Of a stretch of 64,000 nucleotides of DNA, positions 39,659 to 58,871 are shown piece by piece. Source of the stretch: Rhodobiaceae bacterium. Its GTDB lineage: Bacteria > Pseudomonadota > Alphaproteobacteria > Puniceispirillales > Puniceispirillaceae. The DNA is taken from assembly GCA_018624035.1 (NCBI GenBank), contig JAAZUU010000001.1, positions 4,080-68,079 of the forward strand, read 5' to 3'. Under the pieces are notes generated by a model. The model was not told the origin of the DNA, ran no database searches, and saw only the letters and a program-made list of their open reading frames with translations. Both the position numbers and the translations under genes were made by a program. How positions within the stretch are numbered: the first letter of the stretch is position 1; each line of letters opens with the position of its first letter.

Positions 39659-40513
39659 CTAGTCCACAAAGGCCTTTTCAATGACAAGCGTGCCGGGCCT
39701 GGCGTTCGACCCTTCGGTAAAGCCCCCTGATTCCAGCGCGTCACGCATATCCCGCAGCATCGCCATCGATCCGCAGATCATCACCCGGTCGGTCGCCGGG
39801 TCGAGCGGCGCGCCGGCAATCGACTCAAGCGATCCGGTCTCAAGCAATGTTGTCAGCCTTCCGGTGCGCGCATGCGGCTGGCGGGTCGTGGCGTCAATCA
39901 ATTTCAGCCTGTTCGTGGCGAGATCGCCGACAAGCGGATCGCTGTATGTCGCCGTGACAACCTGTTGCCCGTAGGCCAGCTCGGCCGTCAACCGGCAGCC
40001 ATGCGCCAGAACAAGGCTTTCGAACTTCTCATAGCTTTCCGGATCGCGGATCACCGACGCGAAAGGCGCGATCCCGGTGCCGGTGCCAAACATCCACAGA
40101 TTGCGTCCCGGCAACAGCGCATCCAGCACCAGCGTGCCGGTGGCCTTGCGGCGCATCCAGATGGTGTCGCCAGGCTGAACACGCTGCAGATATTCGGTTA
40201 GCGGACCTGCGGGGACCTTGATCGAATAGAATTCCAGCGTGTCATCCCAGGATGGCGAGGCAATGGAATAGGCGCGAAAGACCGGCCGTGTGCCGGGCAG
40301 GCCAATCATGACGAATTCACCGGAGCGGAAGCGAAAGCTGGCTGGCCGGCTGATCCGGAAGCGGAACAGACGGTCAGTGTAATGCTCGACCTCGGTCACC
40401 GTTTCGGCATGGCAGCCAGAAGGGGTTTCGACAGGTGCCTGAAGGGGCGCCTGATGGTCGCTGTCATGTTCGCGGGCCGGCACCGCGATGCCCGTCGCCA
40501 TATGAACTGCCAT
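39659..40513 (-). CDS. fpr: Ferredoxin-NADP+ reductase (bacterial subclass I type)
   Basis: FAD/NAD-binding core HYTDRLFRFRISRP...RAYSIASP...MFGTGTGIAPF...EKAFVD. The ATG at 40513 has GGGGAA upstream. The longer track ORF (to 40597) would cover the operator-like boxes. Confidence 0.75.
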   Translation of the reverse strand: MAVHMATGIAVPAREHDSDHQAPLQAPVETPSGCHAETVTEVEHYTDRLFRFRISRPASFRFRSGEFVMIGLPGTRPVFRAYSIASPSWDDTLEFYSIKVPAGPLTEYLQRVQPGDTIWMRRKATGTLVLDALLPGRNLWMFGTGTGIAPFASVIRDPESYEKFESLVLAHGCRLTAELAYGQQVVTATYSDPLVGDLATNRLKLIDATTRQPHARTGRLTTLLETGSLESIAGAPLDPATDRVMICGSMAMLRDMRDALESGGFTEGSNARPGTLVIEKAFVD

Positions 40514-40561
40514 ATCGTCAGTTCCCCAATTTCGCCAGGGCCGCATCATACCGAAAACTCG

Positions 40562-40578
40562 TTCGTATACAAATGAAA
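40562..40578. promoter_or_regulatory. 17-nt operator-like box, site 1 (TTCGTATACAAATGAAA), upstream of fpr
   Basis: 15/17 identical to site 3 (51492-51508). The core TTnGTATACnAA is a 10/12 palindrome. It lies 49 nt upstream of the preferred fpr ATG. Confidence 0.5.
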
Positions 40579-40582
40579 GATG

Positions 40583-40599
40583 TTTGCATACAAACAATA
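40583..40599. promoter_or_regulatory. Operator-like box, site 1b (TTTGCATACAAACAATA), 21 bp from site 1
   Basis: The core TTTGCATACAAA differs from the site 1 core at 2 of 12 positions. The spacing equals two helical turns. Confidence 0.35.
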
Positions 40600-40677: not shown

Positions 40678-42423
40678 TCAGGCGCGGTTACGTTCGGCGC
40701 GGGTGGCGTCCTCGTCGATCGCCGGCACCTCGCCCTCGCTGATCACGACACCATATAGCTCGCGGGCCTGGGCGGCGCTGTATCGGCCGAGCCGGACATC
40801 CTCAAGGACCGCTTCCGGCGGCCGCTCGAACGGGTCGCCATAGCCGCCACCGCCGGGGGTGCGCACCCAGACCCGGTCGCCCGGGGCCAGCGCGATATCC
40901 TGTTCCTTCGAGAGATGAAGCGGAACATAGGGTTCACTATTCCGGATCACCACGACCTTGTTCACATCGCCATCAGCGCCACCAAGCGCGCCCTGGGGCC
41001 CAAACCGCCCATGATCCATCACGAAGCTGGCGCGGGCCTCGCCATTGCGAAGCTCGAGCTCGTAATCAAGGCCGAATCCGCCGCGATTCCTGCCGGCCCC
41101 GGCGGACCCTTCATGAAGTGCATAGTGATGATAGAGGACCGGAAAGGCCTGCTCCATGATCTCCACCGGCGGCGCTTTCGAGATGCCGATGGTCGAACAG
41201 CCATTGCTCAGCCCGTCGCCATCGGCGTTGCCGCCATAACCGCCGCCAGACAGCTGATACATAACGAAATCGCGGCCGCGTTCGGCATTGTGACCACCAA
41301 GCGCGAAATTGCCGCTGGTGCCGGCCGGCGCGGCGGTCACCCGGTCGGGAAGCGGCTGCACCAGCGCCGCGAACACCGCCTCGGCGATTCGCTGGCTGAC
41401 CTCGGCGGCACAGCCCGACACCGGCCGCGGATAATGCGCGTCAAGGAAAGTGCCCTCGGGCCGGATCACTTCCAGCGGTTCGAACGCGCCGGCGCTGATC
41501 GGCACTTCCGGGAAGATGTGGCGCATCGCCAGATAGACCGAGCTGAGGGTTGTCGCCAGAACCGAATTCATCGGCCCGCGGCAGGGCGGGCTGGACCCGC
41601 CGAAATCGAAGATCAGCCGGTCATCCCGGCGCGTGACCCGGAGCCTGATTTCCAGTGGCTCGTCAACAACACCGTCACTGTCGACATAGGCGACTGACTG
41701 CCAGCTTCCTGCCGGCATGTTCGAGATCAGCTGGCGCATCTGTGTGGCGGCGCGGCCGCGAAGCTCGGCAATGGCCTGCTCCACCGTGTCATCGCCGTAG
41801 CGGTCAAGGAGCAGGTCCAGCCTGTCGGCCCCGACCTCCAGCGCCGCAGCCTGGGCCTTCACATCGCCGATCCGCTGGTCGGCCACGCGGATGTTGGAAC
41901 AGATGATGGCATAGATCTCGCGGTCCATCTCTCCCTGCTTGAACAGCTTCACCGGCGGCAGGCGCAGCCCTTCCTGTTCGACCGCTGTCGCCGAGGCCGA
42001 GAACCCGCCCGGCACGGCGCCGCCGGTATCCGGCCAATGGCCGGTGTTGGACAGCCAGCACCACAGCCTGCCATGCCGGTAATAGGGCCGGACAAAACGC
42101 ACATCCATCAGATGCGTGCCGCCAAGATAGGGGTCGTTGACGATATAGATGTCGCCGGGTTCCGGCGGTGCTGCCTCGCCTTCATCGATCAGCCGGATCA
42201 GTTCGGCGGTGGAATATTGCATCGTGCCGACAAAAACCGGCAGGCCGCCGGCACCCTGGGCGATCAGCGCGCCATCGGCGGCGGCATAGATGCCGTCCGA
42301 CCGGTCATTCGCCTCGGCGATCACCGGCGAGAAGGCGGCGCGGGAGAAACTCAGATCCATCTCGTCACAGGCCTGCTGCAGCCCGGCCTGGATGACGCTG
42401 AGGGTGATGGGATCAAGACTCAT
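40678..42423 (-). CDS. hyuB: Hydantoinase B/oxoprolinase family protein (ATP-dependent cyclic-amide hydrolase, beta subunit)
   Basis: 581 aa: MSLDPITLSVIQAGLQQACDEMDLSF...IYIVNDPYLGGTHLMD, typical of HyuB. ATGA overlap with hyuA. Confidence 0.8.
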   Translation of the reverse strand: MSLDPITLSVIQAGLQQACDEMDLSFSRAAFSPVIAEANDRSDGIYAAADGALIAQGAGGLPVFVGTMQYSTAELIRLIDEGEAAPPEPGDIYIVNDPYLGGTHLMDVRFVRPYYRHGRLWCWLSNTGHWPDTGGAVPGGFSASATAVEQEGLRLPPVKLFKQGEMDREIYAIICSNIRVADQRIGDVKAQAAALEVGADRLDLLLDRYGDDTVEQAIAELRGRAATQMRQLISNMPAGSWQSVAYVDSDGVVDEPLEIRLRVTRRDDRLIFDFGGSSPPCRGPMNSVLATTLSSVYLAMRHIFPEVPISAGAFEPLEVIRPEGTFLDAHYPRPVSGCAAEVSQRIAEAVFAALVQPLPDRVTAAPAGTSGNFALGGHNAERGRDFVMYQLSGGGYGGNADGDGLSNGCSTIGISKAPPVEIMEQAFPVLYHHYALHEGSAGAGRNRGGFGLDYELELRNGEARASFVMDHGRFGPQGALGGADGDVNKVVVIRNSEPYVPLHLSKEQDIALAPGDRVWVRTPGGGGYGDPFERPPEAVLEDVRLGRYSAAQARELYGVVISEGEVPAIDEDATRAERNRA

Positions 42424-44564
42424 GACGCGCCTCCAGCACTGATCGGGCCAGCACTGATCGGGCCAGCACTGATCGGGCCGACGCTGATCAGAATGTTGCC
42501 GTCTTCATCGGAGCTGGCGCTGTCCTTTGGCATGATGAGGATCGTGCTGTCCATCTGTTCGAGAATGGCCGGCCCCTGCAGAGCCATATCGAGGGGCAGT
42601 TTCTCGCGCCGGTAGACAGGCGTGTCGCACCAGCCGTCACCGAACCAGACGCGGCGGGTGCCGGTCTGCGCTTCGGCCAGCGTCGGGGCGCGCCCGGAAT
42701 CATCGATCAGCCCGCCAAGATCGACCTCGGCGCGCCGTCCGGTGACCGTCGTGTTAACATTCACCACCTGCGCGCGGATTTCCGGCAGCCTGACCCGGAA
42801 CCTGTTGAAATAGACCTCCTCGAACCGCGCCTGGATCTCGCCGCGATCCGGCTGGCCATCATCAAGCGGCACCTGCAGAAGATGCGTCTGCCCGCTGAAC
42901 TGCATGTCGAGCGAGTGCTGGACGCCGATCTCCGAGATGTCCACCGGTTCCTGCCGGATGAGCGCCGTTCCCTCGTCACGTTGTGCGGCGAGGATGTCGG
43001 TCAGCTGCGTCATGTCGAGAGTCGCCAGCGGCGCGTTGACCGTCTGTACGAAATCATGGCGAAGATCGGCGACAATGCAGCCCAGTGCGTTGGTGATGCC
43101 GGGGCGGGCGGGCACAAGAACCTCGGGGATGCCAAGCTCGCCGGCCAGCGCCGAGGCATGAAGCGGGCCGGCCCCGCCAAAGGCGAAAAGCGAGAAATCA
43201 CGCGGGTCCTCACCAAGAGAGACCGACACCATGCGGGTCGCGCCGGCCATGCGGGTGGTGGCGATACGAAGCACCGCCTCGGCGGCGCTCTCGGCATCGA
43301 TTCCCAGCCTGTCGCCAAGCTCGGTCTGGAAGATCTGACGGATGCGCGCCAGATCGACATTGCCCGGAACCGATTTCAGCTTGTCGACATCAAGTCTGCC
43401 AAGCAGCATGTTGGCATCGGAAATGGTCGGCTTTGTCCCGCCGCGGCCATAACAGATCGGGCCCGGGTTTGCACCGGCGCTCTGCGGCCCGACCTCAAGA
43501 AGGCCGGCCTCGTTGACCCGTGCGATCGATCCGCCACCGGCGCCGATGGTGCGGACATCGACCATCGGCACATGGATCGGCATCGCATATTCAAGCTCGA
43601 TCTCGTGCGAGACCGACGGCTCGCTTCCCCGGATCAGCGCGACATCGGTCGAGGTGCCGCCCATGTCATAGGTGATCAGGTTGGGCCGTCCGGCGCGGCG
43701 GCCGGTATAGGCGGCGGCGATCACGCCGGAGGCCGGGCCCGACATCACCGTCTTCGCGGCCTCGCGGACGACGCGGCTTGCCGAAACCGTGCCGCCATTG
43801 CCGTTCATCACCAGAAGCTCGCCACCATAGCCGCCTTCACCAAGCTCGTTCACCAGCCGCCCGACATAGCGTTCCAGAAGCGGTTGCACCGAGGCGTTGA
43901 CGGCGGCGGTGACGCCGCGCTCGAACTCGCGGCTTTCCGAAAGCAGCGAATGGCCGGTCGTGATGTAGTCATTCGGCCAGAAGGTGGCGAGGATTTCGGC
44001 TGCCCTTGTCTCGTGCTGCGGATTGGCATAGGCGTGAAGGAAATGCACCACCACCGATTCAACACCGGCGGCAAGCAATTGCTCACCCGCAAGACGCACC
44101 GCATTCTCATCAAGCGGCGTCACCACACGGCCGGCATAATCAAGCCGTTCCGGCACCTCGAGGCGCAGGTCACGCGGAATGATCGGCGTGAAATCGCCCT
44201 TCATGCCATAGGGCTGTGGCCGGGTACGGCGGCCAAGCTCGAGCACGTCGCGGAAACCTGCGGTGGTGATCAGCCCGGTGCGGCTGAGCTTGCGTTCGAG
44301 CACGGCGTTGGTCGTCGTCGTGGTGCCGTGGATTACAAGGGCGACATCACGAAGTACCGTGCCGGCCTCCTCCAGCGCTGTCATCACCCCGAAGGCCTGG
44401 TTGTCGATCGTGCTGGCCACCTTTGACAGGTGAACGGTGCCGGTCTTCTGATCGAGCCTGACGAGATCGGTGAATGTGCCGCCGACATCGACGCCGATCA
44501 GGTTGCCCCCGGTCAGCTTGCCTACGGTCAGCTTCTTTTGATGGGCCTTGTCGCGCGCCGCCAT
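42420..44564 (-). CDS. hyuA: Hydantoinase A/oxoprolinase family protein (alpha subunit) with a repeat-encoded C-terminal tail
   Basis: IGVDVGGTFTDLV...TYDMGGTSTDV are actin-like ATPase motifs. I use the internal ATG at 44564 (GGGGAAAG upstream). The C-terminus is ...LISVG(PISAG)x3GAS. Confidence 0.8.
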   Translation of the reverse strand: MAARDKAHQKKLTVGKLTGGNLIGVDVGGTFTDLVRLDQKTGTVHLSKVASTIDNQAFGVMTALEEAGTVLRDVALVIHGTTTTTNAVLERKLSRTGLITTAGFRDVLELGRRTRPQPYGMKGDFTPIIPRDLRLEVPERLDYAGRVVTPLDENAVRLAGEQLLAAGVESVVVHFLHAYANPQHETRAAEILATFWPNDYITTGHSLLSESREFERGVTAAVNASVQPLLERYVGRLVNELGEGGYGGELLVMNGNGGTVSASRVVREAAKTVMSGPASGVIAAAYTGRRAGRPNLITYDMGGTSTDVALIRGSEPSVSHEIELEYAMPIHVPMVDVRTIGAGGGSIARVNEAGLLEVGPQSAGANPGPICYGRGGTKPTISDANMLLGRLDVDKLKSVPGNVDLARIRQIFQTELGDRLGIDAESAAEAVLRIATTRMAGATRMVSVSLGEDPRDFSLFAFGGAGPLHASALAGELGIPEVLVPARPGITNALGCIVADLRHDFVQTVNAPLATLDMTQLTDILAAQRDEGTALIRQEPVDISEIGVQHSLDMQFSGQTHLLQVPLDDGQPDRGEIQARFEEVYFNRFRVRLPEIRAQVVNVNTTVTGRRAEVDLGGLIDDSGRAPTLAEAQTGTRRVWFGDGWCDTPVYRREKLPLDMALQGPAILEQMDSTILIMPKDSASSDEDGNILISVGPISAGPISAGPISAGGAS
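42433..42492. repeat. 15-bp tandem repeat x4 (CCAGCACTGATCGGG; three perfect copies plus one degenerate), in frame in the 3' end of hyuA
   Basis: Read directly. It encodes LISVG-PISAG-PISAG-PISAG just before the hyuA stop / hyuB start overlap. Confidence 0.9.
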
Positions 44565-44586
44565 CAGCCGTCTTTCCCCAGAATTG

Positions 44587-44603
44587 TTGGTATGCGAATG
44601 AGC
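44587..44603. promoter_or_regulatory. Operator-like box, site 2 (TTGGTATGCGAATGAGC), in the hyuA / membrane-protein divergent spacer
   Basis: 13/16 identical to site 3 over TTnGTATnCGAATGA. Confidence 0.4.
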
Positions 44604-44610
44604 GCCGAAT

Positions 44611-44627
44611 ATTGACAAATTGTCAAT
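44611..44627. promoter_or_regulatory. Perfect 17-bp palindrome ATTGACAA-A-TTGTCAAT
   Basis: 8-bp arms around a single central base, 8 nt from operator-like site 2, in the hyuA / membrane-protein divergent spacer. Confidence 0.4.
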
Positions 44628-44676
44628 TGGGTTTCCAAATCTCCGCATGCTGTCGATATCCTCAGATTATGGGTTA

Positions 44677-50986: not shown

Positions 50987-51424
50987 TCAGATGAGCCGGT
51001 CCAGAAGCTTGATCAGCCGGTCCTGTTCCTGTTTGTCAAGCGGTGCCAGCGTCCGGCGCGTCACCTCGGACGCCTTGGCGACAAGCTCATCATGCAGATC
51101 GCGTCCCGCCTCGGTCGGAGTCAGCATCAGCCGCCGGCGGTCGCCGACAAGCGGCGATGCATCGACAAGGCCGCGGGCGCGCAGCCGGTCGACAACACCC
51201 TTGATTGTCGCGACATCCATCGAGGTCAGTCGCCCGAGCTCGTTCTGCGAGGTCTGACCAAGCTCGCAAAGTTTTGCCAGGGCGGCGAACTGCGTTGGGG
51301 TCATTTCGGGGATCAGTGACGAAAAAATCGCGATATGGCGCTGCATCACGCGGCGCATGATGAAGCCGACCTGCCGTTCCAGAAGATATGTGTTGCGAGC
51401 TGTCACGCTGTGTCCTCCGGGCAT
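50987..51424 (-). CDS. MarR-family transcriptional regulator (NicR-like by context)
   Basis: LLERQVGFIMRRV...MTPTQFAALAKLCELGQTSQNELGRLTSMDVATIKGVVDRLRARGLV is a winged-helix MarR core. I prefer the ATG at 51424 because the codons between 51424 and the ATG at 51481 are rich in A/T-ending rare codons. The start is uncertain. Confidence 0.7.
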   Translation of the reverse strand: MPGGHSVTARNTYLLERQVGFIMRRVMQRHIAIFSSLIPEMTPTQFAALAKLCELGQTSQNELGRLTSMDVATIKGVVDRLRARGLVDASPLVGDRRRLMLTPTEAGRDLHDELVAKASEVTRRTLAPLDKQEQDRLIKLLDRLI

Positions 51425-51491
51425 GCGACGACATGGCGTCGACTGCGTGCCTTTGTCAGTTGACACTATCAGGACCCCCATGCACAGTCTA

Positions 51492-51534: not shown

Positions 51535-52380
51535 ATGAATTATCTGCGACCTCATCTTCTCGAAGACGCGTTGCAATGGCTGGCGACGAAGCGGCCGCTT
51601 GTCATGGCCGGCTGTACAGATATCTACCCGACCACACAGGCACCGTCGCTTGACGGGCCGCTTCTCGACATTACCGCCCTTGAGGGCCTGCGCGGCATCA
51701 CTGTGGCGGACGGGTGGCGGCGCTTTGGCGCGGCGACAACCTGGGATGATGTGCTGCAATCCAACCTGCCACCTTCCTATCGCATGCTGAAACAGGCGGC
51801 GCGCGAGATCGGCGCGGTGCAGATTCAGGTCAGCGGCACCATTGGCGGCAATCTGTGTACCGCCTCGCCAGCGGCCGACAGCGTGCCATGCCTGATGGCA
51901 CTTGATGCCGAAGTTGAACTTGCCTCGGTCGGCGGCAGTCGACGCCTGCCGCTCGCCGACTTCCTGACCGGGCCGCGGCAGACGGCGTTGCGGCCAGATG
52001 AACTTCTTGTCGCCATCCATGTGCCGCGGCATGCCGAGGCCGGCCGGTCGGGCTTTGCCAAGCTTGGCGCGCGCCGCTATCTGGTGATTTCGATCGCCAT
52101 GGCCGCCGTGCGGCTGGAGGTCGAGGATGGGCGCATTACAGGCGCGGCGGTGTCGGTTGGTGCCTGTGCGCCGGTCGCGTCCCGCCAGACCGGCCTGGAA
52201 TCACGCCTTGTCGGACGCCGGCCTGACGACATTGACGCGCTGGCCACCGAGGCGATGCTGATGATCGCCGACAGCCTCTCGCCGATTGATGATGTACGGG
52301 CCTCGGCCGGCTATCGGCGGCAGGCGGCGGCCGAACTTGCCTGGCGGAGCATCCGGTCACTTTGCAGGGAGGCGGCGTGA
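51535..52380 (+). CDS. Molybdenum hydroxylase FAD-binding (medium, CoxM/XdhB-like) subunit
   Basis: The ATG at 51535 gives MNYLRPHLLEDALQWLATKRPLVMAGCTDIYP...GGNLCTASPAADS, the FAD_binding_5 pattern. Confidence 0.75.
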   Translation: MNYLRPHLLEDALQWLATKRPLVMAGCTDIYPTTQAPSLDGPLLDITALEGLRGITVADGWRRFGAATTWDDVLQSNLPPSYRMLKQAAREIGAVQIQVSGTIGGNLCTASPAADSVPCLMALDAEVELASVGGSRRLPLADFLTGPRQTALRPDELLVAIHVPRHAEAGRSGFAKLGARRYLVISIAMAAVRLEVEDGRITGAAVSVGACAPVASRQTGLESRLVGRRPDDIDALATEAMLMIADSLSPIDDVRASAGYRRQAAAELAWRSIRSLCREAA

Positions 52381-55139
52381 TGGACGGCGTTTCCGAGTCC
52401 GGCACACAGCTTGATTTCACGGTGAATGGCGAGGCGGCGAGGCTCCGCTGCGCCCCGTCGACGCGGCTCAGCGATCTGCTTCGTGAACAGCTTGGCCTTC
52501 GTGGGACAAAGGTCGGATGCAATGCCGGCGATTGCGGCGCCTGCACCGTGCTTCTTGATGGCCGGCCGGTCTGTGCCTGTCTGGTGCCCGCCGGCCAAGT
52601 CGAGGGGCGGCATGTCGAAACCGCGGAATCGCTTGCCGGCCCGGACAGTGTTCTCTCGAACCTTCAGCAGGCCTTTTTGCGGCATGGGGCGGCACAATGC
52701 GGGATCTGCACCCCCGGCATGATGATGGCGGCGACGGCGTTGCTTCGCGGCACCCCGTCGCCGGATCGCGGTCAGGTCGAGGACGCTATCGGCGGCGTGC
52801 TGTGCCGCTGTACCGGCTATGCGAAGATCGTCGATGCCATCATGGATGCGGGAGCTGGCGCGATTTCGCCTCCGTCGCCCGATGCCGGCGCTGCGGTCGG
52901 TGCCGCCGTATATCGTCTTGACGGCCACGCCAAGGTCAATGCCACCGAAAAGTTCGGTGCTGATTCCTGGCCGCAGGACGCGCTTCTGGTGCGGGCCGTC
53001 CGGTCACCGCATTTTCTTGCCGATTTCAGCTTTGGCGATCTTGCCGGGTGGCAGCAGGACCGGCCCTTTGCCACCGCCATCGTCACGGCGGCGGACATTC
53101 GCGGCGTCAATGCCTTCGGCGTGATCCCGCCCTTCGCCGACCAGCCGGCGCTTGCCGAGACGACCGCGCGGTTCCGCGGCGAGGCGGTGGCGCTGGTGAT
53201 CGGCACGGCCGAGGAGCTTGTCGCCGCCAATCTGTCGGATTTTCCGGTCGTCTGGCAGGAACGCGATCCGGCGCTGACGGTCGAGGCGGCGCGTCGCCCG
53301 GGTGTGGCGCAGCTTCATGAGACGCGACCCGACAATCTGCTGATCACGGGCAAGGTGAAAAGCGGCGACGGCGCGGCCGGGCTGTCGAGTGGCGATGTGC
53401 GGGTCAGCGCCGCCATCGAGACGGCCTATGTCGAGCATGCGCCGATCGAGCCCGAGGCCGGTTGTGCCTGGATGGAGGGTGATGTTCTGGTCATCTCGGC
53501 CTGCACGCAGGCACCGGTGATGGATCAGGAGGACACGGCCAGGATCCTGGGATTGCCGCTTGATCGGGTGCGGATCATTCCGGCCGCTGCCGGCGGCGGG
53601 TTCGGCACCAAGCTGGATGTCTCGCTGCAGCCGCTTCTGGGGCTGGCGGTGATGAGGACGGGCCGTCCGTGCCGGATGGTCTATTCGCGTCAGGAATCAA
53701 TGATCTCGACAACCAAACGTCACCCGGCGGCGATGCGCGGACAGCTTGCCGCGACGCAGGATGGCCGGCTTGCCGGCATGGTGTTCGAGGGTGAATTCAA
53801 CACTGGCGCCTATGCCAGCTGGGGGCCGACGGTGGCGACGCGGGTGCCGATCCACGCCTCTGGCCCGTACAATGTTCCGCATTACCTTGCCGAGGCGCAT
53901 GCCATCCATACCAACGGGCCGGTGTCGGGTGCCTTTCGGGGTTTTGGCGTGCCGCAGGCGACGATCCTGCAGGAAGTGCTGATGGACAGGCTGGCGGGCG
54001 AGCTCGGCCTCGACCGTCTGGACTTCCGGCGTCGCAACGCGCTTGTCGATGGTGACCGCACCGTTTGCGGCCAGCAGGTGCATGGTGTGGGGATTGCCGA
54101 ATGTCTGGATGCGCTGGTGCCGGCCTGGCAGGCGGCGCAGGCGCGCGCCGCGACGTTCAATGCCAATGGCGGAACAACGCGCCGGGGTGTCGGTGTCGCG
54201 TCATGCTGGTATGGGTGCGGCAACACCGCGTTGTCGAACCCGTCGACCATTCGCCTCGGTATCACCGCCGATGGCCGGCTGCGGCTGCATCAGGGGGCGA
54301 CCGATATCGGCCAGGGGTCGAACACCGTAATCACGCAGATATGTGCCGACGCGCTTGGCATGCCGCTTGCCGATTTCGAGCTTGTCGGCCCGGATACCGC
54401 GATCACGCCTGATTGCGGCAAGACCTCGGCCTCGCGGCAGACCTTCATCACCGGCAAGGCGGCCGAACTGTCCGGACGCCGCCTTCGTGCCGACATCCTG
54501 CGCCTCAGCAATATGGAGGATGAGTCCGAAATCCGGATCGAGGATACATGCATCGTCATCACCGGCGCGGCGGACCGGCAGCGGATCGACCTTGCGACGA
54601 TGCCGGTCGATGAATTCGGCTATGTGATGCGCGCCGAGGAAACCTACGATCCGCCAACGGTGCCGCTTGATGCCGACGGCCAGGGCGAGCCCTATGCCGT
54701 CTATGGCTATGGGGCGCAGGTGGTTGAGCTGGAGGTTGACCTGAAACTTGGCACGGTCAGGGTCCTGCACATCACCGCGGTGCATGATCTGGGACGGGTG
54801 ATCAACCCGCTGCTGGCCACCGGGCAGATCGAGGGTGGCATCGCGCAGGGGCTCGGCATGGCGCTGATGGAGGAATATATTCCCGGCCGCACCGAGAATC
54901 TGCATGATTATCTGATCCCGTCATGCGGCGACATGCCGGAGATCGAGACCATTTTCATCGAGAAGCCCGATCCGGTCGGCCCGATGGGGGCAAAGGGGCT
55001 TGGCGAGCATGTGCTGATCCCGACGGCGCCAGCGATCCTGAACGCCATTCATGACGCGACCGGCGCCTGGATTGACCAATTGCCGGCGCTGCCACATCGC
55101 GTTATGGCGGCCATCCGCGCCGCTGATCAGGGTCATTAG
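52380..55139 (+). CDS. Fused [2Fe-2S] small subunit plus molybdopterin-binding large subunit of a xanthine-dehydrogenase-family hydroxylase (candidate nicotinate dehydrogenase)
   Basis: The ATG at 52380 overlaps the upstream stop (TGATG). The N-terminus has GCNAGDCGACTV and QCGICTPGMMM...CRCTGY. The rest is an aldehyde-oxidase/XDH a/b-hammerhead plus Moco domains (...GGGFG..., ...AKGLGE...). Confidence 0.75.
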   Translation: MDGVSESGTQLDFTVNGEAARLRCAPSTRLSDLLREQLGLRGTKVGCNAGDCGACTVLLDGRPVCACLVPAGQVEGRHVETAESLAGPDSVLSNLQQAFLRHGAAQCGICTPGMMMAATALLRGTPSPDRGQVEDAIGGVLCRCTGYAKIVDAIMDAGAGAISPPSPDAGAAVGAAVYRLDGHAKVNATEKFGADSWPQDALLVRAVRSPHFLADFSFGDLAGWQQDRPFATAIVTAADIRGVNAFGVIPPFADQPALAETTARFRGEAVALVIGTAEELVAANLSDFPVVWQERDPALTVEAARRPGVAQLHETRPDNLLITGKVKSGDGAAGLSSGDVRVSAAIETAYVEHAPIEPEAGCAWMEGDVLVISACTQAPVMDQEDTARILGLPLDRVRIIPAAAGGGFGTKLDVSLQPLLGLAVMRTGRPCRMVYSRQESMISTTKRHPAAMRGQLAATQDGRLAGMVFEGEFNTGAYASWGPTVATRVPIHASGPYNVPHYLAEAHAIHTNGPVSGAFRGFGVPQATILQEVLMDRLAGELGLDRLDFRRRNALVDGDRTVCGQQVHGVGIAECLDALVPAWQAAQARAATFNANGGTTRRGVGVASCWYGCGNTALSNPSTIRLGITADGRLRLHQGATDIGQGSNTVITQICADALGMPLADFELVGPDTAITPDCGKTSASRQTFITGKAAELSGRRLRADILRLSNMEDESEIRIEDTCIVITGAADRQRIDLATMPVDEFGYVMRAEETYDPPTVPLDADGQGEPYAVYGYGAQVVELEVDLKLGTVRVLHITAVHDLGRVINPLLATGQIEGGIAQGLGMALMEEYIPGRTENLHDYLIPSCGDMPEIETIFIEKPDPVGPMGAKGLGEHVLIPTAPAILNAIHDATGAWIDQLPALPHRVMAAIRAADQGH

Positions 55140-55151
55140 GGGAGAGCGAGC

Positions 55152-56624
55152 ATGGCCAAGGAGGTCGTCGAGAAGATCCGCTGCGATGCCTGTCCGGTGA
55201 TGTGCTATATCGCCGATGGCAACAGCGGTGCCTGTGACCGCTACGCCAATCATGACGGCCAGATCGTCCGTCTTGACCCGCTGACGATCTTTGACCGGAG
55301 GCTGTCGGCCGGCGATACGGTGAAACCGTTTCTTGGTGCCGGTTGGGATGGCGGCCTCGGGTCCGAGACAGACCTGTTCGTGACCGCCATCGGTGCCGGC
55401 ACGACCTATCCCGATTACAAGCCGGCGCCCTTTGTTGTCAGCCGTGATATCGAGGGGGTCGATTTCGTGACGGTGGTGACCGAGGCCATCTTCTCCTATT
55501 GCGGGGTGAAGGTGAAAATCGACACCGACCGGCATCTTGGCAAGGAAGGCGCCGTGGTGCGCTGCGATGGCGAGGCTGTCGGGCTGGTCATCACCTCGGA
55601 ATATGGCTCGCAGATGCTGTCGCTTGGCGGGGTCGATCATCTGACCGGCGGGTCGAAGAAGGAAGGCCGGGTCACCTGCGACACGCTCATGCAGCTGTGC
55701 AACAAACAGGCTGTCGAACTGACGATCGATGACGGCGCGACGGTTACCGTCCAGGCCGGCAAGCCACCGATTGTCGATGGCATCGTAGAGAGCCGCATGC
55801 GGGTCGGCTGCGGGTCGGCGACGATCGGCATGTTCGCCTCGCAATGGAAGGGGCTTGTCGATGAGGTGGTTGTCGTCGATGACCACATCACCGGCGTGGT
55901 GTCCGAACATCAGGCCGGCAAGGTCATCGACTGGCAGGAAACCGGCATCAGGATCAAGGGACGCCGTTCGACCCCGGGGCGCTATTTTCAGGTGGCCGAA
56001 CCCGGTCTTGGATGGGGTGGCACCGATATCGAGGACCCGCTGACCATACTTGGCGACTGGGATGCGAAGAAGGGCGCCCGCCCGGGACTGACATTGCTGA
56101 TGGTGTCGACGACCGGCGAGCAGTCTGGCTATTTCACCCTGGATGATGATCTGGTGCCACAGCCGGCGCCGCTTCCCGAATCGCTGCGCCCGACGGTTGA
56201 TCTGATCACCGAGAATTGCGAGCCGGCCCAATGCACGGTGCTGTTCATGGGCGGGGCTGGCGGATCGCTTCGCGCCGGCGCGACGAGGAACCCGGTGAAG
56301 CTGACCCGCTCGGTGCAGAAACGGCATACCACCGTGTCCTGCGGCGGTGTCGAGGCGTTCGTCTGGCCCGGCGGTGGGATCACGATCATGGTCGATGTGC
56401 TGAACCTTCCCGACAATGCCTTCGGCTATGTGCCGACGCCGGCGCTGGTCGCGCCGCTGGAATTCACCGTTCGCCGTGACGACTATGTGGAGCTTGGCGG
56501 ACATGGCGACGCCGTGCGAAGCATCGCCGAGGCGATCGAGCAGGGAAGCGAATATGGCGCGAATGCACAGATCATGGGGCCCGGGGCAAAGACGGTGCTG
56601 ACCGACAATGATGGCGAGTCCTGA
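55152..56624 (+). CDS. Fe-S protein resembling 6-hydroxynicotinate reductase (Hnr-like)
   Basis: 490 aa with GGGGAGAG SD. The N-terminal motif is C-x2-C-x3-C-x9-C (KIRCDACPVMCYIADGNSGAC). I recall proteins of this size and N-terminus being annotated as 6-hydroxynicotinate reductase in alphaproteobacteria, next to UPF0280 and DUF1185 genes. The assignment needs an HMM/BLAST check. Confidence 0.5.
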   Translation: MAKEVVEKIRCDACPVMCYIADGNSGACDRYANHDGQIVRLDPLTIFDRRLSAGDTVKPFLGAGWDGGLGSETDLFVTAIGAGTTYPDYKPAPFVVSRDIEGVDFVTVVTEAIFSYCGVKVKIDTDRHLGKEGAVVRCDGEAVGLVITSEYGSQMLSLGGVDHLTGGSKKEGRVTCDTLMQLCNKQAVELTIDDGATVTVQAGKPPIVDGIVESRMRVGCGSATIGMFASQWKGLVDEVVVVDDHITGVVSEHQAGKVIDWQETGIRIKGRRSTPGRYFQVAEPGLGWGGTDIEDPLTILGDWDAKKGARPGLTLLMVSTTGEQSGYFTLDDDLVPQPAPLPESLRPTVDLITENCEPAQCTVLFMGGAGGSLRAGATRNPVKLTRSVQKRHTTVSCGGVEAFVWPGGGITIMVDVLNLPDNAFGYVPTPALVAPLEFTVRRDDYVELGGHGDAVRSIAEAIEQGSEYGANAQIMGPGAKTVLTDNDGES

Positions 56625-57561
56625 CATATCCGGTGTTGGCCGGCCATCCGCCATGGCGGGGTTTCAGGCGGCGCTGATCGGCCGCCATCAGCGGCTCCAT
56701 ATCCAGCATGGCCCCATCGATCTGGTGATTGACGCGGACGGGTCGGGGCGCAACGCGCTGTTCGAACGCGCTGTCGACGCGGCGATGCCGGTTCTCTCGA
56801 TCCTTGCGGACGAGCTGGACGGCCTGCGCGCGCCATATGCGGCAGGACGCCGGTTTGGCGGGTCGGTGGCGCGCCGCATGCAGACTGCCTGCCGGGTGGC
56901 CGGTGACAGGTTTGTCACCCCCATGGCCGCGGTGGCGGGGTCGGTGGCCGATCACGTTCTGGCGGCAATGCTGGATGATGAGGCGGCACGGGACAGCAGC
57001 CGGATCAGCGTGAATAACGGTGGTGATATCGCCTTCTGGACCGCGGAGGGCGCCACGACGCGCGCCCTGATCGCCGGTCTTCCGGCAGGCATGCTGACGC
57101 TCACCGGACCGACATGCTGGCGCGGTATGGCCAGCTCGGGATGGGGCGGGCGCAGTCACTCGCTTGGCATAGCCGACAGCGTGACGGTGCTTGCCAAAAG
57201 TGCCGCGCTGGCCGATATCGCGGCAACTCTGATTGCCAATAATGTCGACCTGCCGGGCCACCCGATGATCACGCGGCAGCCGGCGCATGACCTTGACCCG
57301 GCAAGCGACCTTGCCAACAGGATGGTGACGACCGGCGTGCCGTCCCTTGCCGATGACGAGATTGCGGCCGCGCTGGCCGCCGGGCGCGTGACAGCCTCCG
57401 AACTCACGCAGCGGCATGGCATCGCCGGCGCGGTTCTGGTGCTGCAGGGCCGGATCGAGACAGTCGGTCTCGCCGCCGGCCTGCTTGACGGCCAGCCAGC
57501 CCACGCCGACAGGCCAGATAACATCAAGGCAGATCAAATCGGGGAGGATTACCATGCCTGA
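56608..57561 (+). CDS. UPF0280 family protein (ApbE-like fold family)
   Basis: 317 aa. 17-nt overlap with the Hnr-like gene. RLHIQHGPIDLVIDADG is the motif I associate with UPF0280. Confidence 0.55.
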   Translation: MMASPDISGVGRPSAMAGFQAALIGRHQRLHIQHGPIDLVIDADGSGRNALFERAVDAAMPVLSILADELDGLRAPYAAGRRFGGSVARRMQTACRVAGDRFVTPMAAVAGSVADHVLAAMLDDEAARDSSRISVNNGGDIAFWTAEGATTRALIAGLPAGMLTLTGPTCWRGMASSGWGGRSHSLGIADSVTVLAKSAALADIAATLIANNVDLPGHPMITRQPAHDLDPASDLANRMVTTGVPSLADDEIAAALAAGRVTASELTQRHGIAGAVLVLQGRIETVGLAAGLLDGQPAHADRPDNIKADQIGEDYHA

Positions 57562-58135
57562 CTTCACGCTTCGCAAGACAATGAGTTTTGTCGAGACAAT
57601 CCACCACGAGAATGGCCCGCCGCCAGAGACACCGCGCCGCCGCGCCGCCATTGTCGCCGTCGTCGCCAACCCGTTCGCCGGCACCTGGCAGGAGGATCTG
57701 CAATCGGCGATGGATGATCTGAAACAGCTTGGCCTTGCCATGACCGACGAGTTGATCGGGCTTCTTGGCGGGATCGAGGGGATTGACGGCTATGGCAAGG
57801 CGGCGCTTGCCGGCGAGGGGGGCGAACTGGAACATACCGCGCTGTGGCATGTCCCCGGCGGCTATTCGATGCGCGAGCGTCTTGGCGAGGCGAAGGCCAT
57901 CGTGCCATCGGCGATGAAGGTCGGCGGTCCCGGCACACCGATCGATATTCCGCTTGGCCATATCAACGCCGCCTATGTGCGGAGCCATTTCGATGCCATG
58001 GAGGTGCGGCTTGCCGATGCGCCGCGTGCCGGCGAGATCATGTTCGCGCTTGCGATGTCGCGCGGGCCGCGAATTCATAACCGCATGGGCGGGCTGACCG
58101 TCGATGAGGTCACCGGCAAGGACGGGCTGCGATAG
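57554..58135 (+). CDS. Amino-acid-synthesis family protein (DUF1185 / AA_synth)
   Basis: The ATG at 57554 follows GGGGAGGA and overlaps the UPF0280 gene by 8 nt. MPDFTLRKTMSFVETIHHENGPPPETPRRRAAIVAVVANPFAG resembles the DUF1185 N-terminus. Confidence 0.55.
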   Translation: MPDFTLRKTMSFVETIHHENGPPPETPRRRAAIVAVVANPFAGTWQEDLQSAMDDLKQLGLAMTDELIGLLGGIEGIDGYGKAALAGEGGELEHTALWHVPGGYSMRERLGEAKAIVPSAMKVGGPGTPIDIPLGHINAAYVRSHFDAMEVRLADAPRAGEIMFALAMSRGPRIHNRMGGLTVDEVTGKDGLR

Positions 58136-58274: not shown

Positions 58275-58871
58275 ATGAAGGCGCTTGTTGTAATCGACCC
58301 GCAGATTGATTTCTGCCCGGGCGGCGCGCTTGCCGTCGCCGACGGTGACAGCATCATGCAGCCCATCAACGCGATGATGGATGCGTTCGACATGGTGATC
58401 CTGACCCAGGACTGGCACCCGCAAGGCCATTCCAGCTTTGCCTCGTCGCATGAGTGCGCGGCGCCCTTCACCCTGACCGAGATGCCCTATGGGCCGCAGG
58501 TGCTGTGGCCCGACCATTGTATTCAGGGAAGCGAGGGGGCGGCGTTCCATGCGGCGCTTGACACCGATCGTGCTGACGCGGTGATCCGCAAGGGCACCAA
58601 TCCGGCGGTTGATTCCTATTCGGCCTTTTTCGAGAATGACAAGGCGACCGTGACCGGGCTTGCCGGGTTGCTCCGCGAGCGCGGCTGCGAGGACCTGACG
58701 ATGGTCGGGCTGGCGACTGACTACTGCGTTGCCTGGTCGGCACTGGACGGGGTGGCGAACGGCTTTCGGGTCGACGTCAGACTGCCGGCCTGCCGGGCGA
58801 TCGACCTTGACGGGTCGCTCGACAAGGCGCTTGCCGACATGCGCGCGGCCGGTGTGACATTGGTGGAATAG
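58275..58871 (+). CDS. pncA: Nicotinamidase/pyrazinamidase (isochorismatase family)
   Basis: 198 aa: MKALVVIDPQIDFCPGGALAV (catalytic Asp context), ...IRKG..., GLATDYCV (catalytic Cys context). Confidence 0.8.
   Translation: MKALVVIDPQIDFCPGGALAVADGDSIMQPINAMMDAFDMVILTQDWHPQGHSSFASSHECAAPFTLTEMPYGPQVLWPDHCIQGSEGAAFHAALDTDRADAVIRKGTNPAVDSYSAFFENDKATVTGLAGLLRERGCEDLTMVGLATDYCVAWSALDGVANGFRVDVRLPACRAIDLDGSLDKALADMRAAGVTLVE

Follow-up and report, generated by a model that had tools for sequence, protein, structure and literature searches.

An ApbE-fold UPF0280 protein paired with a putative 6-hydroxynicotinate reductase, and a dispensable DUF1185 companion, in a nicotinate cluster of a SAR116-type alphaproteobacterium

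The stretch of 64,000 nucleotides (nt) analysed here, which we call the window, comes from contig JAAZUU010000001.1 of Rhodobiaceae bacterium assembly GCA_018624035.1 and carries three overlapping genes at 55152-58135, encoding an Hnr-like Fe-S protein (a putative 6-hydroxynicotinate reductase), a UPF0280 protein and a DUF1185 protein. UPF0280 always goes with Hnr; it is derived from ApbE and enzyme-like, with the metal/pyrophosphate side of the catalytic centre retained. The DUF1185 protein, which belongs to the clade named A below, is a dispensable accessory and probably not a reductase subunit. We favour, while granting it slightly less than an even chance, a reading in which the trio serves as the reductive core of an operon for nicotinate/nicotinamide catabolism in a SAR116-type alphaproteobacterium, with UPF0280 as the flavin maturation factor of Hnr and DUF1185 as a dispensable helper. 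The trio is laid out as follows.

55152-56624, plus strand: gene of the Hnr-like Fe-S protein, putative 6-hydroxynicotinate reductase; open reading frame (ORF) of 490 amino acids (aa)
56608-57561, plus strand: gene of the UPF0280/PF27030 ApbE-fold protein; ORF of 317 aa with NCBIfam PRK04334 matches
57541-57548, plus strand: Shine-Dalgarno sequence GGGGAGGA, read from the sequence, 5 nt before the DUF1185 ATG at 57554
57554-58135, plus strand: DUF1185 (PF06684 AA_synth) gene of clade A; ORF of 193 aa, Pfam E 1e-64

Both overlaps reported in the initial annotation are borne out. UPF0280 starts at ATGATG 56608-56613 inside the 3' end of hnr, whose TGA stop lies at 56622-56624, giving an overlap of 17 nt, or of 14 nt if the second ATG of ATGATG is used; the DUF1185 ATG overlaps the TGA of UPF0280 (57559-57561) by 8 nt and follows the strong Shine-Dalgarno sequence listed above. 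L063 and L064, the closest two relatives from SAR116, also have the open frame and an ATGATG overlapping the end of hnr, which makes the upstream UPF0280 start credible. UPF0280 residues 1 to ~15 are poorly conserved and have a predicted local distance difference test score (pLDDT) below 50 in the model. A promoter and terminator scan inside and just 3' of the trio gave no signal above shuffles.

The pairing was established in a survey of 401 evenly drawn alphaproteobacterial genomes, searched with each of the three proteins, in which related genomes are not independent samples. Hnr occurred in 64 of the 401, and UPF0280 in the very same 64, with nothing but a truncated remnant in one other genome. 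The UPF0280 gene lay directly downstream of hnr on the same strand in about 60 of the 64, a contig end falling between the two genes in the other four. We regard the pair as obligate because this co-occurrence holds across 47 genera despite the kinship among the genomes. A second sample took in 351 Pseudomonadota, of which 19 had Hnr; 18 of these were Alphaproteobacteria. UPF0280 was adjacent to hnr in all five further genomes checked, including the sole one from outside that class. Gene maps were drawn for 138 loci, among them 80 named ones that are the nearest 80 matches and almost all alphaproteobacterial; in two Acetobacteraceae of these 80, UPF0280 was not beside hnr, yet each genome had one copy elsewhere. 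In both of these (L099:10001-12018 of Acidisphaera sp. L21, and L095) hnr stands amid unrelated glycosyltransferase genes and UPF0280 is on another contig; L099 has only a clade-B DUF1185 after hnr, and L095 has no DUF1185 within 10 kb of it. The pairing holds alike in loci bearing an enamidase and in loci bearing the HyuAB lactamase, and this independence from the ring-opening enzyme ties UPF0280 to Hnr itself and not to later steps.

Co-occurrence statistics had been proposed for the trio as a unit, and they divide it: Hnr and UPF0280, one remnant of the latter aside, were confined to the same 64 genomes, while DUF1185 proved facultative. A DUF1185 gene lay directly 3' of UPF0280 in about 39 of the 64 Hnr genomes and 5-13 kb from it in four, and a further four had a close copy elsewhere in the genome; the remaining 17 had no DUF1185 or a distant paralogue only. 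Six of these 17 are complete or near-complete genomes in which the DUF1185 search gave no match at all, and family members were also found in sixteen surveyed genomes without Hnr. The suggestion that the three genes are locked together thus fails, since a close DUF1185 is wanting in 17 of 64 Hnr genomes.

The Hnr-like ORF matched no model in Pfam or NCBIfam, and its assignment rests on the name 6-hydroxynicotinate reductase that NCBI gives to proteins 75-87% identical to it, members of a large and strongly conserved family. The pathway context of such a reductase is present, with genes of an XDH-family hydroxylase directly upstream and of PncA downstream. A homologue from Bradyrhizobiaceae is reported to have 42% identity to Hnr of Eubacterium barkeri (PMC3511419). 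Eight cysteines (C11, C14, C18, C28, C117, C176, C220 and C356) are invariant and include a Cx2Cx3Cx9C motif; the loop GAGGSLRxGxT378xNP is invariant as well. A Pfam search found no Fer4 domain in the window Hnr. Weaker Hnr look-alikes with Fer4 domains, of 475-507 aa and with scores of 0.84-0.89, were seen among ESM Atlas clusters from Bacillota and Thermodesulfobacteriota, and the latter phylum is also the source of DVU1097, a UPF0280 protein of solved structure.

The AlphaFold2 model of Hnr has a pLDDT of 76 with a confident core at residues ~120-460. Compared with the PDB it gave no Foldseek match at E <=1e-3 and a best VIA Z of 4.4, the query being one of 490 residues in which matches to single domains may have been missed. 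No known flavin-binding domain was found in Hnr by Pfam and fold searches. The most conserved motif of the protein, TYPDYKPAPF (residues 85-94, window 55404-55433), is invariant in 55 sequences, and the residues around it (54-91) have a pLDDT of only ~30; judged by the model, order in this stretch may depend on a cofactor, a partner or oligomer formation. The Hnr gene of one complete genome (L048, G039:C1:2969823-2971210) is split into two adjacent frames near residue 235, which points to either a pseudogene with a frameshift or an error in sequencing.

Four PRK04334/UPF0280 NCBIfam models match the second ORF, the best being NF003322 (278.7 bits, E 4.5e-83, under its cut-off of 290). Homologues 40-51% identical to the window protein carry PF27030, as do Atlas clusters named 'UPF0280 family', and this Pfam 38 entry, 'AbpE_bact', already marks the family as ApbE-like. 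The initial annotation had placed UPF0280 in the ApbE-like fold, and the confident model (pLDDT 87.7) agrees, showing that fold throughout the domain. Among solved structures DVU1097 (2o34; Z 21.1, root mean square deviation (rmsd) 2.9 A over 212 residues, 26% identity) comes nearest, and it is also matched at sequence level by phmmer (E 7.7e-6). Members of the Ftp/ApbE/FmnB group follow with VIA Z of 14.4-16.1 and rmsd of 3.1-3.5 A over 202-215 aligned residues; Foldseek gives the ApbE fold a probability of 1.0, and the matches comprise Ftp of Escherichia coli and Treponema pallidum, ApbE of Vibrio cholerae and others, and Listeria FmnB. The next unrelated fold, uricase, reaches a Z of <=7.7.

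Profile comparison with hhalign, against an ApbE alignment of 17 sequences including E. coli Ftp, gave 95.5% probability (E 1.6e-8) over the C-terminal half only, with the motifs GxxxD, GGD, ATSG, (S/A)VTV and ADxxxT in register. Conserved catalytic residues of ApbE, in V. cholerae numbering, are Ser241, the general base His257 and Asp285 (PMC12052999). S177 (in ATSG) and D203 (in ADxxxT) of UPF0280 are invariant in 54 sequences, align with S255 and D299 of E. coli Ftp and are the counterparts of two of these three, Ser241 and Asp285. They belong to a set of conserved pocket residues (S177, R182, S183, S185, D190, D203 and T207). D203-x-x-x-T207 matches the Mg2+ ligands of T. pallidum Ftp. The protein is cytoplasmic, with neither signal peptide nor lipobox. 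A canonical ApbE (PF02424) was found neither in a search of the whole source genome, which is 95.6% complete, nor in the Hnr-positive genome G053. The literature collection searched returned nothing under the name UPF0280 and no paper joining ApbE and hydroxynicotinate.

From this we infer a role that remains conditional in its chemistry. UPF0280 would most likely be a dedicated maturation factor serving Hnr only, which it would supply with its flavin through a non-canonical form of ApbE chemistry. The donor would be a Mg2+-bound nucleotide diphosphate, with flavin adenine dinucleotide (FAD) as the most evident choice. E. barkeri Hnr is said to carry a covalently bound flavin, and because of this and of the missing flavin-binding domain in Hnr, transfer of flavin mononucleotide (FMN) from FAD would be the obvious reaction. 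The earlier proposal that UPF0280 is a flavinylation factor or a subunit of the reductase survives in part: the tie to Hnr goes far beyond chance and makes either role reasonable, and the active site and the presumed acceptor depart from what ApbE would lead one to expect.

Several points weigh against the maturation role. The loop with the general-base histidine of ApbE (HxxDPxTG) is deleted from the UPF0280 profile, and H184 of the protein is a variable residue, position 184 being F in 24 sequences, L in 19 and H in 8. The N-terminal half, which in ApbE helps to hold FAD, is not alignable, and a Pfam search at E <=1e-3 gave no PF02424 match in UPF0280. The acceptor motif D-x-x-[ST]-G-A-[ST] occurs in none of 55 Hnr sequences; its [ST]GA[ST] core is present in two, and a loose A-G-[AV]-T378 in 54. 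With the histidine loop and the acceptor motif missing and the N-terminal half unaligned, any flavin transfer would have to be non-canonical. The covalent flavin itself was reportedly described for the E. barkeri enzyme by Alhapel in 2006, and a flavin cannot be seen from sequence. The evidence for the role given to the clade-A DUF1185 protein is indirect. Finally, the data do not separate a transient maturase from a stable subunit, and translational coupling suits a subunit equally.

The alternative to be taken most seriously makes UPF0280 a lasting, stoichiometric reductase subunit ('HnrB') that forms part of the cofactor or substrate site and does not act just once in maturation; we consider it doubtful though by no means negligible. 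Strict co-occurrence and adjacency are what it predicts, the stop/start overlap favours equimolar synthesis, and the invariant TYPDYKPAPF at a pLDDT of ~30 looks as if it wanted a partner. Single ORFs over Hnr and UPF0280 have also been called in several metagenome assemblies (P0277, P0280, P0283 and P0284), but their linkers are Arg/Pro/Gly-rich and junk-like or their domains partial, as is typical of read-through or frameshift errors, which they probably are. An apparent natural fusion in G217 was likewise rejected, the two genes being in the same frame but interrupted by TGA AAA ATG. Conservation is moreover far lower in UPF0280 than in Hnr (mean column identity 45% vs 71%), and this faster divergence, together with the unlinked copies in the two Acetobacteraceae, makes us lean towards a helper over a core subunit. 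The E. barkeri enzyme, too, was reportedly described from a single hnr gene. Three further ORFs of 757-816 aa (P0275, P0281 and P0282, one of them in a cluster of seven members) join UPF0280 to a Liv-type solute-binding protein and are either real fusions or read-through.

The common gene order in the 138 mapped loci is (MarR) FAD – Mo/FeS – Hnr – UPF0280 – [0-2 DUF1185] – [ABC transporter] – [HyuA HyuB], and in G217 the FAD subunit through HyuB form a single seven-gene run. Clustering of the unassigned ORFs in these loci brought out an amidohydrolase in 30 of them; it matches E. barkeri enamidase (PDB 2vun) over the full length at E 6.6e-107 and is its orthologue. Enamidase and HyuAB were never found together in one locus and so fit alternative ring-opening enzymes. 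HyuAB was present in 37 related loci, of which 12 had no DUF1185, 21 had clade A only and four had both clades; the notion that DUF1185 accompanies HyuAB wherever it replaces enamidase was dropped on account of those 12. A gene for a Rieske/VanA-type oxygenase recurs in 14 loci and lies just 3' of UPF0280 in one (L032:10714-11757). Eleven loci of Bradyrhizobium and relatives (L123:5687-9226 and ten others) have a molybdopterin subunit of 1180 aa that carries fused cytochrome c domains and stands in place of the FAD and Fe-S/molybdenum cofactor (Moco) pair of the window type.

The third ORF is an unambiguous DUF1185 protein, matching all 175 positions of the PF06684 profile (217.7 bits; cut-off 27) and the solved members 3byq (E 4.3e-52) and 2qtp (E 3.7e-47). 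A tree of 146 sequences from a quick IQ-TREE search has a deep split (SH-aLRT 100) into two clades. Clade A comprises 92 rows, including the window copy, and 88 of these lie directly after UPF0280. Clade B comprises 54 rows, found as the second of a tandem pair, near enamidase, or, in Bradyrhizobium, alone after UPF0280; its copies that are detached from hnr lie 25-46 nt upstream of enamidase. All 30 enamidase loci had clade B; of the loci that lacked DUF1185 or had only clade A, 80 in number, not one showed an enamidase within 10 kb.

The position of clade A might suggest that it is a subunit or chaperone of an Hnr-UPF0280 complex, and a subunit role had indeed been put forward initially. Its regular place after UPF0280, the 8-nt overlap and the strong Shine-Dalgarno sequence in the window would suit this, but we think it improbable: a close copy is wanting in the 17 Hnr genomes, six of them without any match, HyuA takes the place directly after UPF0280 in six loci, detached copies occur in G147 and G379, and the sister clade is found in every enamidase-bearing locus. 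According to PMC7913881, which cites Perchat 2018 for it, the DUF1185 family member TgnF reportedly enhances an aldehyde dehydrogenase step of trigonelline catabolism. The fold of the family is chorismate-mutase-like (PMC2954203). This fold, the association of the sister clade with enamidase and the TgnF report point weakly to a role of clade A in product handling, in which the protein would act on a labile product after reduction or ring opening, at the enamine/imine or 2-formylglutarate stage.

Two other DUF1185 copies were noted in passing. The detached clade-A copy in G147 (L060) lies amid nir/heme-d1 genes and is uninformative. A second paralogue in the source genome itself, 37% identical (L165:9392-9994, G000:C132), lies beside a DAO-type FAD oxidoreductase gene; PreT/PreA-like dihydropyrimidine dehydrogenase genes lie divergent to the paralogue and code for another Fe-S flavoenzyme that reduces an N-heterocycle ring.

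Least probable of the alternatives is a UPF0280 without protein substrate that serves the pathway as a small-molecule enzyme, acting for example on a reduced pyridone intermediate or a nucleotide: the conserved pocket marks an enzyme or ligand binder, and the general base and acceptor motif of ApbE chemistry are missing, but UPF0280 follows Hnr only, whichever ring-opening route is used, and between 6-hydroxynicotinate and tetrahydro-6-oxonicotinate the established pathway is not known to have a free step that needs another enzyme.

The surroundings of the trio would supply the remaining steps of the favoured catabolic reading and contain the following genes.

39659-40597, minus strand: ferredoxin-NADP reductase-like flavoprotein (Pfam, NCBIfam), recurring beside the cluster in other loci
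40678-44648, minus strand: HyuB/HyuA, caprolactamase-related ATP-dependent lactamase (Pfam; CapA/CapB the best NCBIfam matches, below cut-off)
50987-51481, minus strand: MarR-family regulator (Pfam MarR), divergent from the operon and recurring in related loci
51535-52380, plus strand: FAD subunit of an XDH-family (nicotinate) hydroxylase (PF00941 and PF03450)
52380-55139, plus strand: fused 2x[2Fe-2S] and molybdopterin hydroxylase subunit (Pfam, NCBIfam), ending 12 nt before hnr
58275-58871, plus strand: PncA nicotinamidase/pyrazinamidase (NF008623, 209 bits, cut-off 174), 139 nt 3' of DUF1185

The FAD subunit gene is likely the first of the operon that holds the trio, and a Liv-type ABC transporter, like the divergent MarR regulator, is encoded further upstream. 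In the proposed pathway PncA would make nicotinate, the Mo-hydroxylase would convert it to 6-hydroxynicotinate and the Hnr-like enzyme would reduce the ring to tetrahydro-6-oxonicotinate, possibly with the ferredoxin-NADP reductase-like flavoprotein as electron-input partner. The ring would here be opened by the ATP-dependent HyuAB lactamase and not by an enamidase, of which no homologue was found in the 95.6%-complete source genome. HyuAB is a candidate for this step: in the window it lies 10.5 kb upstream of hnr and ~6.7 kb from the operon start on the opposite strand, and other genomes have it within the operon, immediately 3' of UPF0280 or DUF1185. The nearest public relative among the nearest 80 loci is a metagenome-assembled genome of Candidatus Puniceispirillaceae (SAR116), with 93% Hnr identity.

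For this window alone the result is ordinary. If UPF0280 does install the flavin of Hnr, however, a family of ~3,000 representative clusters would gain a function, protein flavinylation would take in a novel client, located in the cytoplasm and recognised through a novel site, and the source of the cofactor would be explained for a reductase without a recognisable flavin-binding fold. Taken further, UPF0280/PF27030 could represent a second, cytoplasmic class of ApbE-derived cofactor transferases that lacks the general-base loop and attaches FMN, or another nucleotide-derived cofactor, at a non-canonical site of Hnr such as GAGGSLRxG[AV]T378, while both DUF1185 clades would be enzymes, not chaperones, that process an unstable ring-opened enamine or 2-formylglutarate; this wider proposal is speculative and rather unlikely to hold as a whole. 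The split of DUF1185 into a clade on the side of Hnr and one on the side of enamidase offers a tangible way into a family that still bears the wrong label, 'amino acid synthesis'. To call either role a new functional assignment, as was done at the outset, goes too far: both are offered as hypotheses, and a conserved cluster with two unknown proteins has already been published (PMC3511419).

Set beside known systems, the window locus is another copy of that published nicotinate cluster, in an enamidase-free HyuAB variant from a SAR116-type marine bacterium. The proteobacterial cluster is known from Azorhizobium caulinodans (AZC_2790-2804), Bradyrhizobium (blr3818-3830) and strain SG-6C, and was modelled on the nic cluster of E. 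barkeri (Shettigar 2012, PMC3511419). The window shares with it the Mo-hydroxylase, the Hnr homologue, the Liv-type ABC transporter and the MarR regulator, and differs from it in having a caprolactamase-like HyuAB pair in a genome without enamidase, a single clade-A DUF1185 instead of an A and B pair, fused Fe-S and Moco hydroxylase subunits and an attached PncA. With ApbE, Ftp and FmnB (PF02424; PDB 4xgv, 4ig1, 6nxi and 7esa) UPF0280 has in common the fold over the whole modelled domain, the motifs and the catalytic Ser and Asp; unlike them it has no PF02424 match, general-base His loop, alignable N-terminal half, signal peptide or lipobox, and its presumed client, unlike the clients of ApbE, has neither the D-x-x-[ST]-G-A-[ST] motif nor an FMN_bind domain. 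Within its own family the closest solved structure is the structural-genomics entry DVU1097 of Desulfovibrio vulgaris (2o34, 'Pfam DUF375'). The first DUF1185/PF06684 structures were those of BB2672 (3byq) and SPO0826 (2qtp), and participation in 'amino-acid metabolism' was inferred from their transporter neighbours (PMC2954203). Liv-type ABC transporter genes lie near the window DUF1185 as well, but across the loci analysed here they form part of a nicotinate cluster, and clade B occurs in every locus that has an enamidase.

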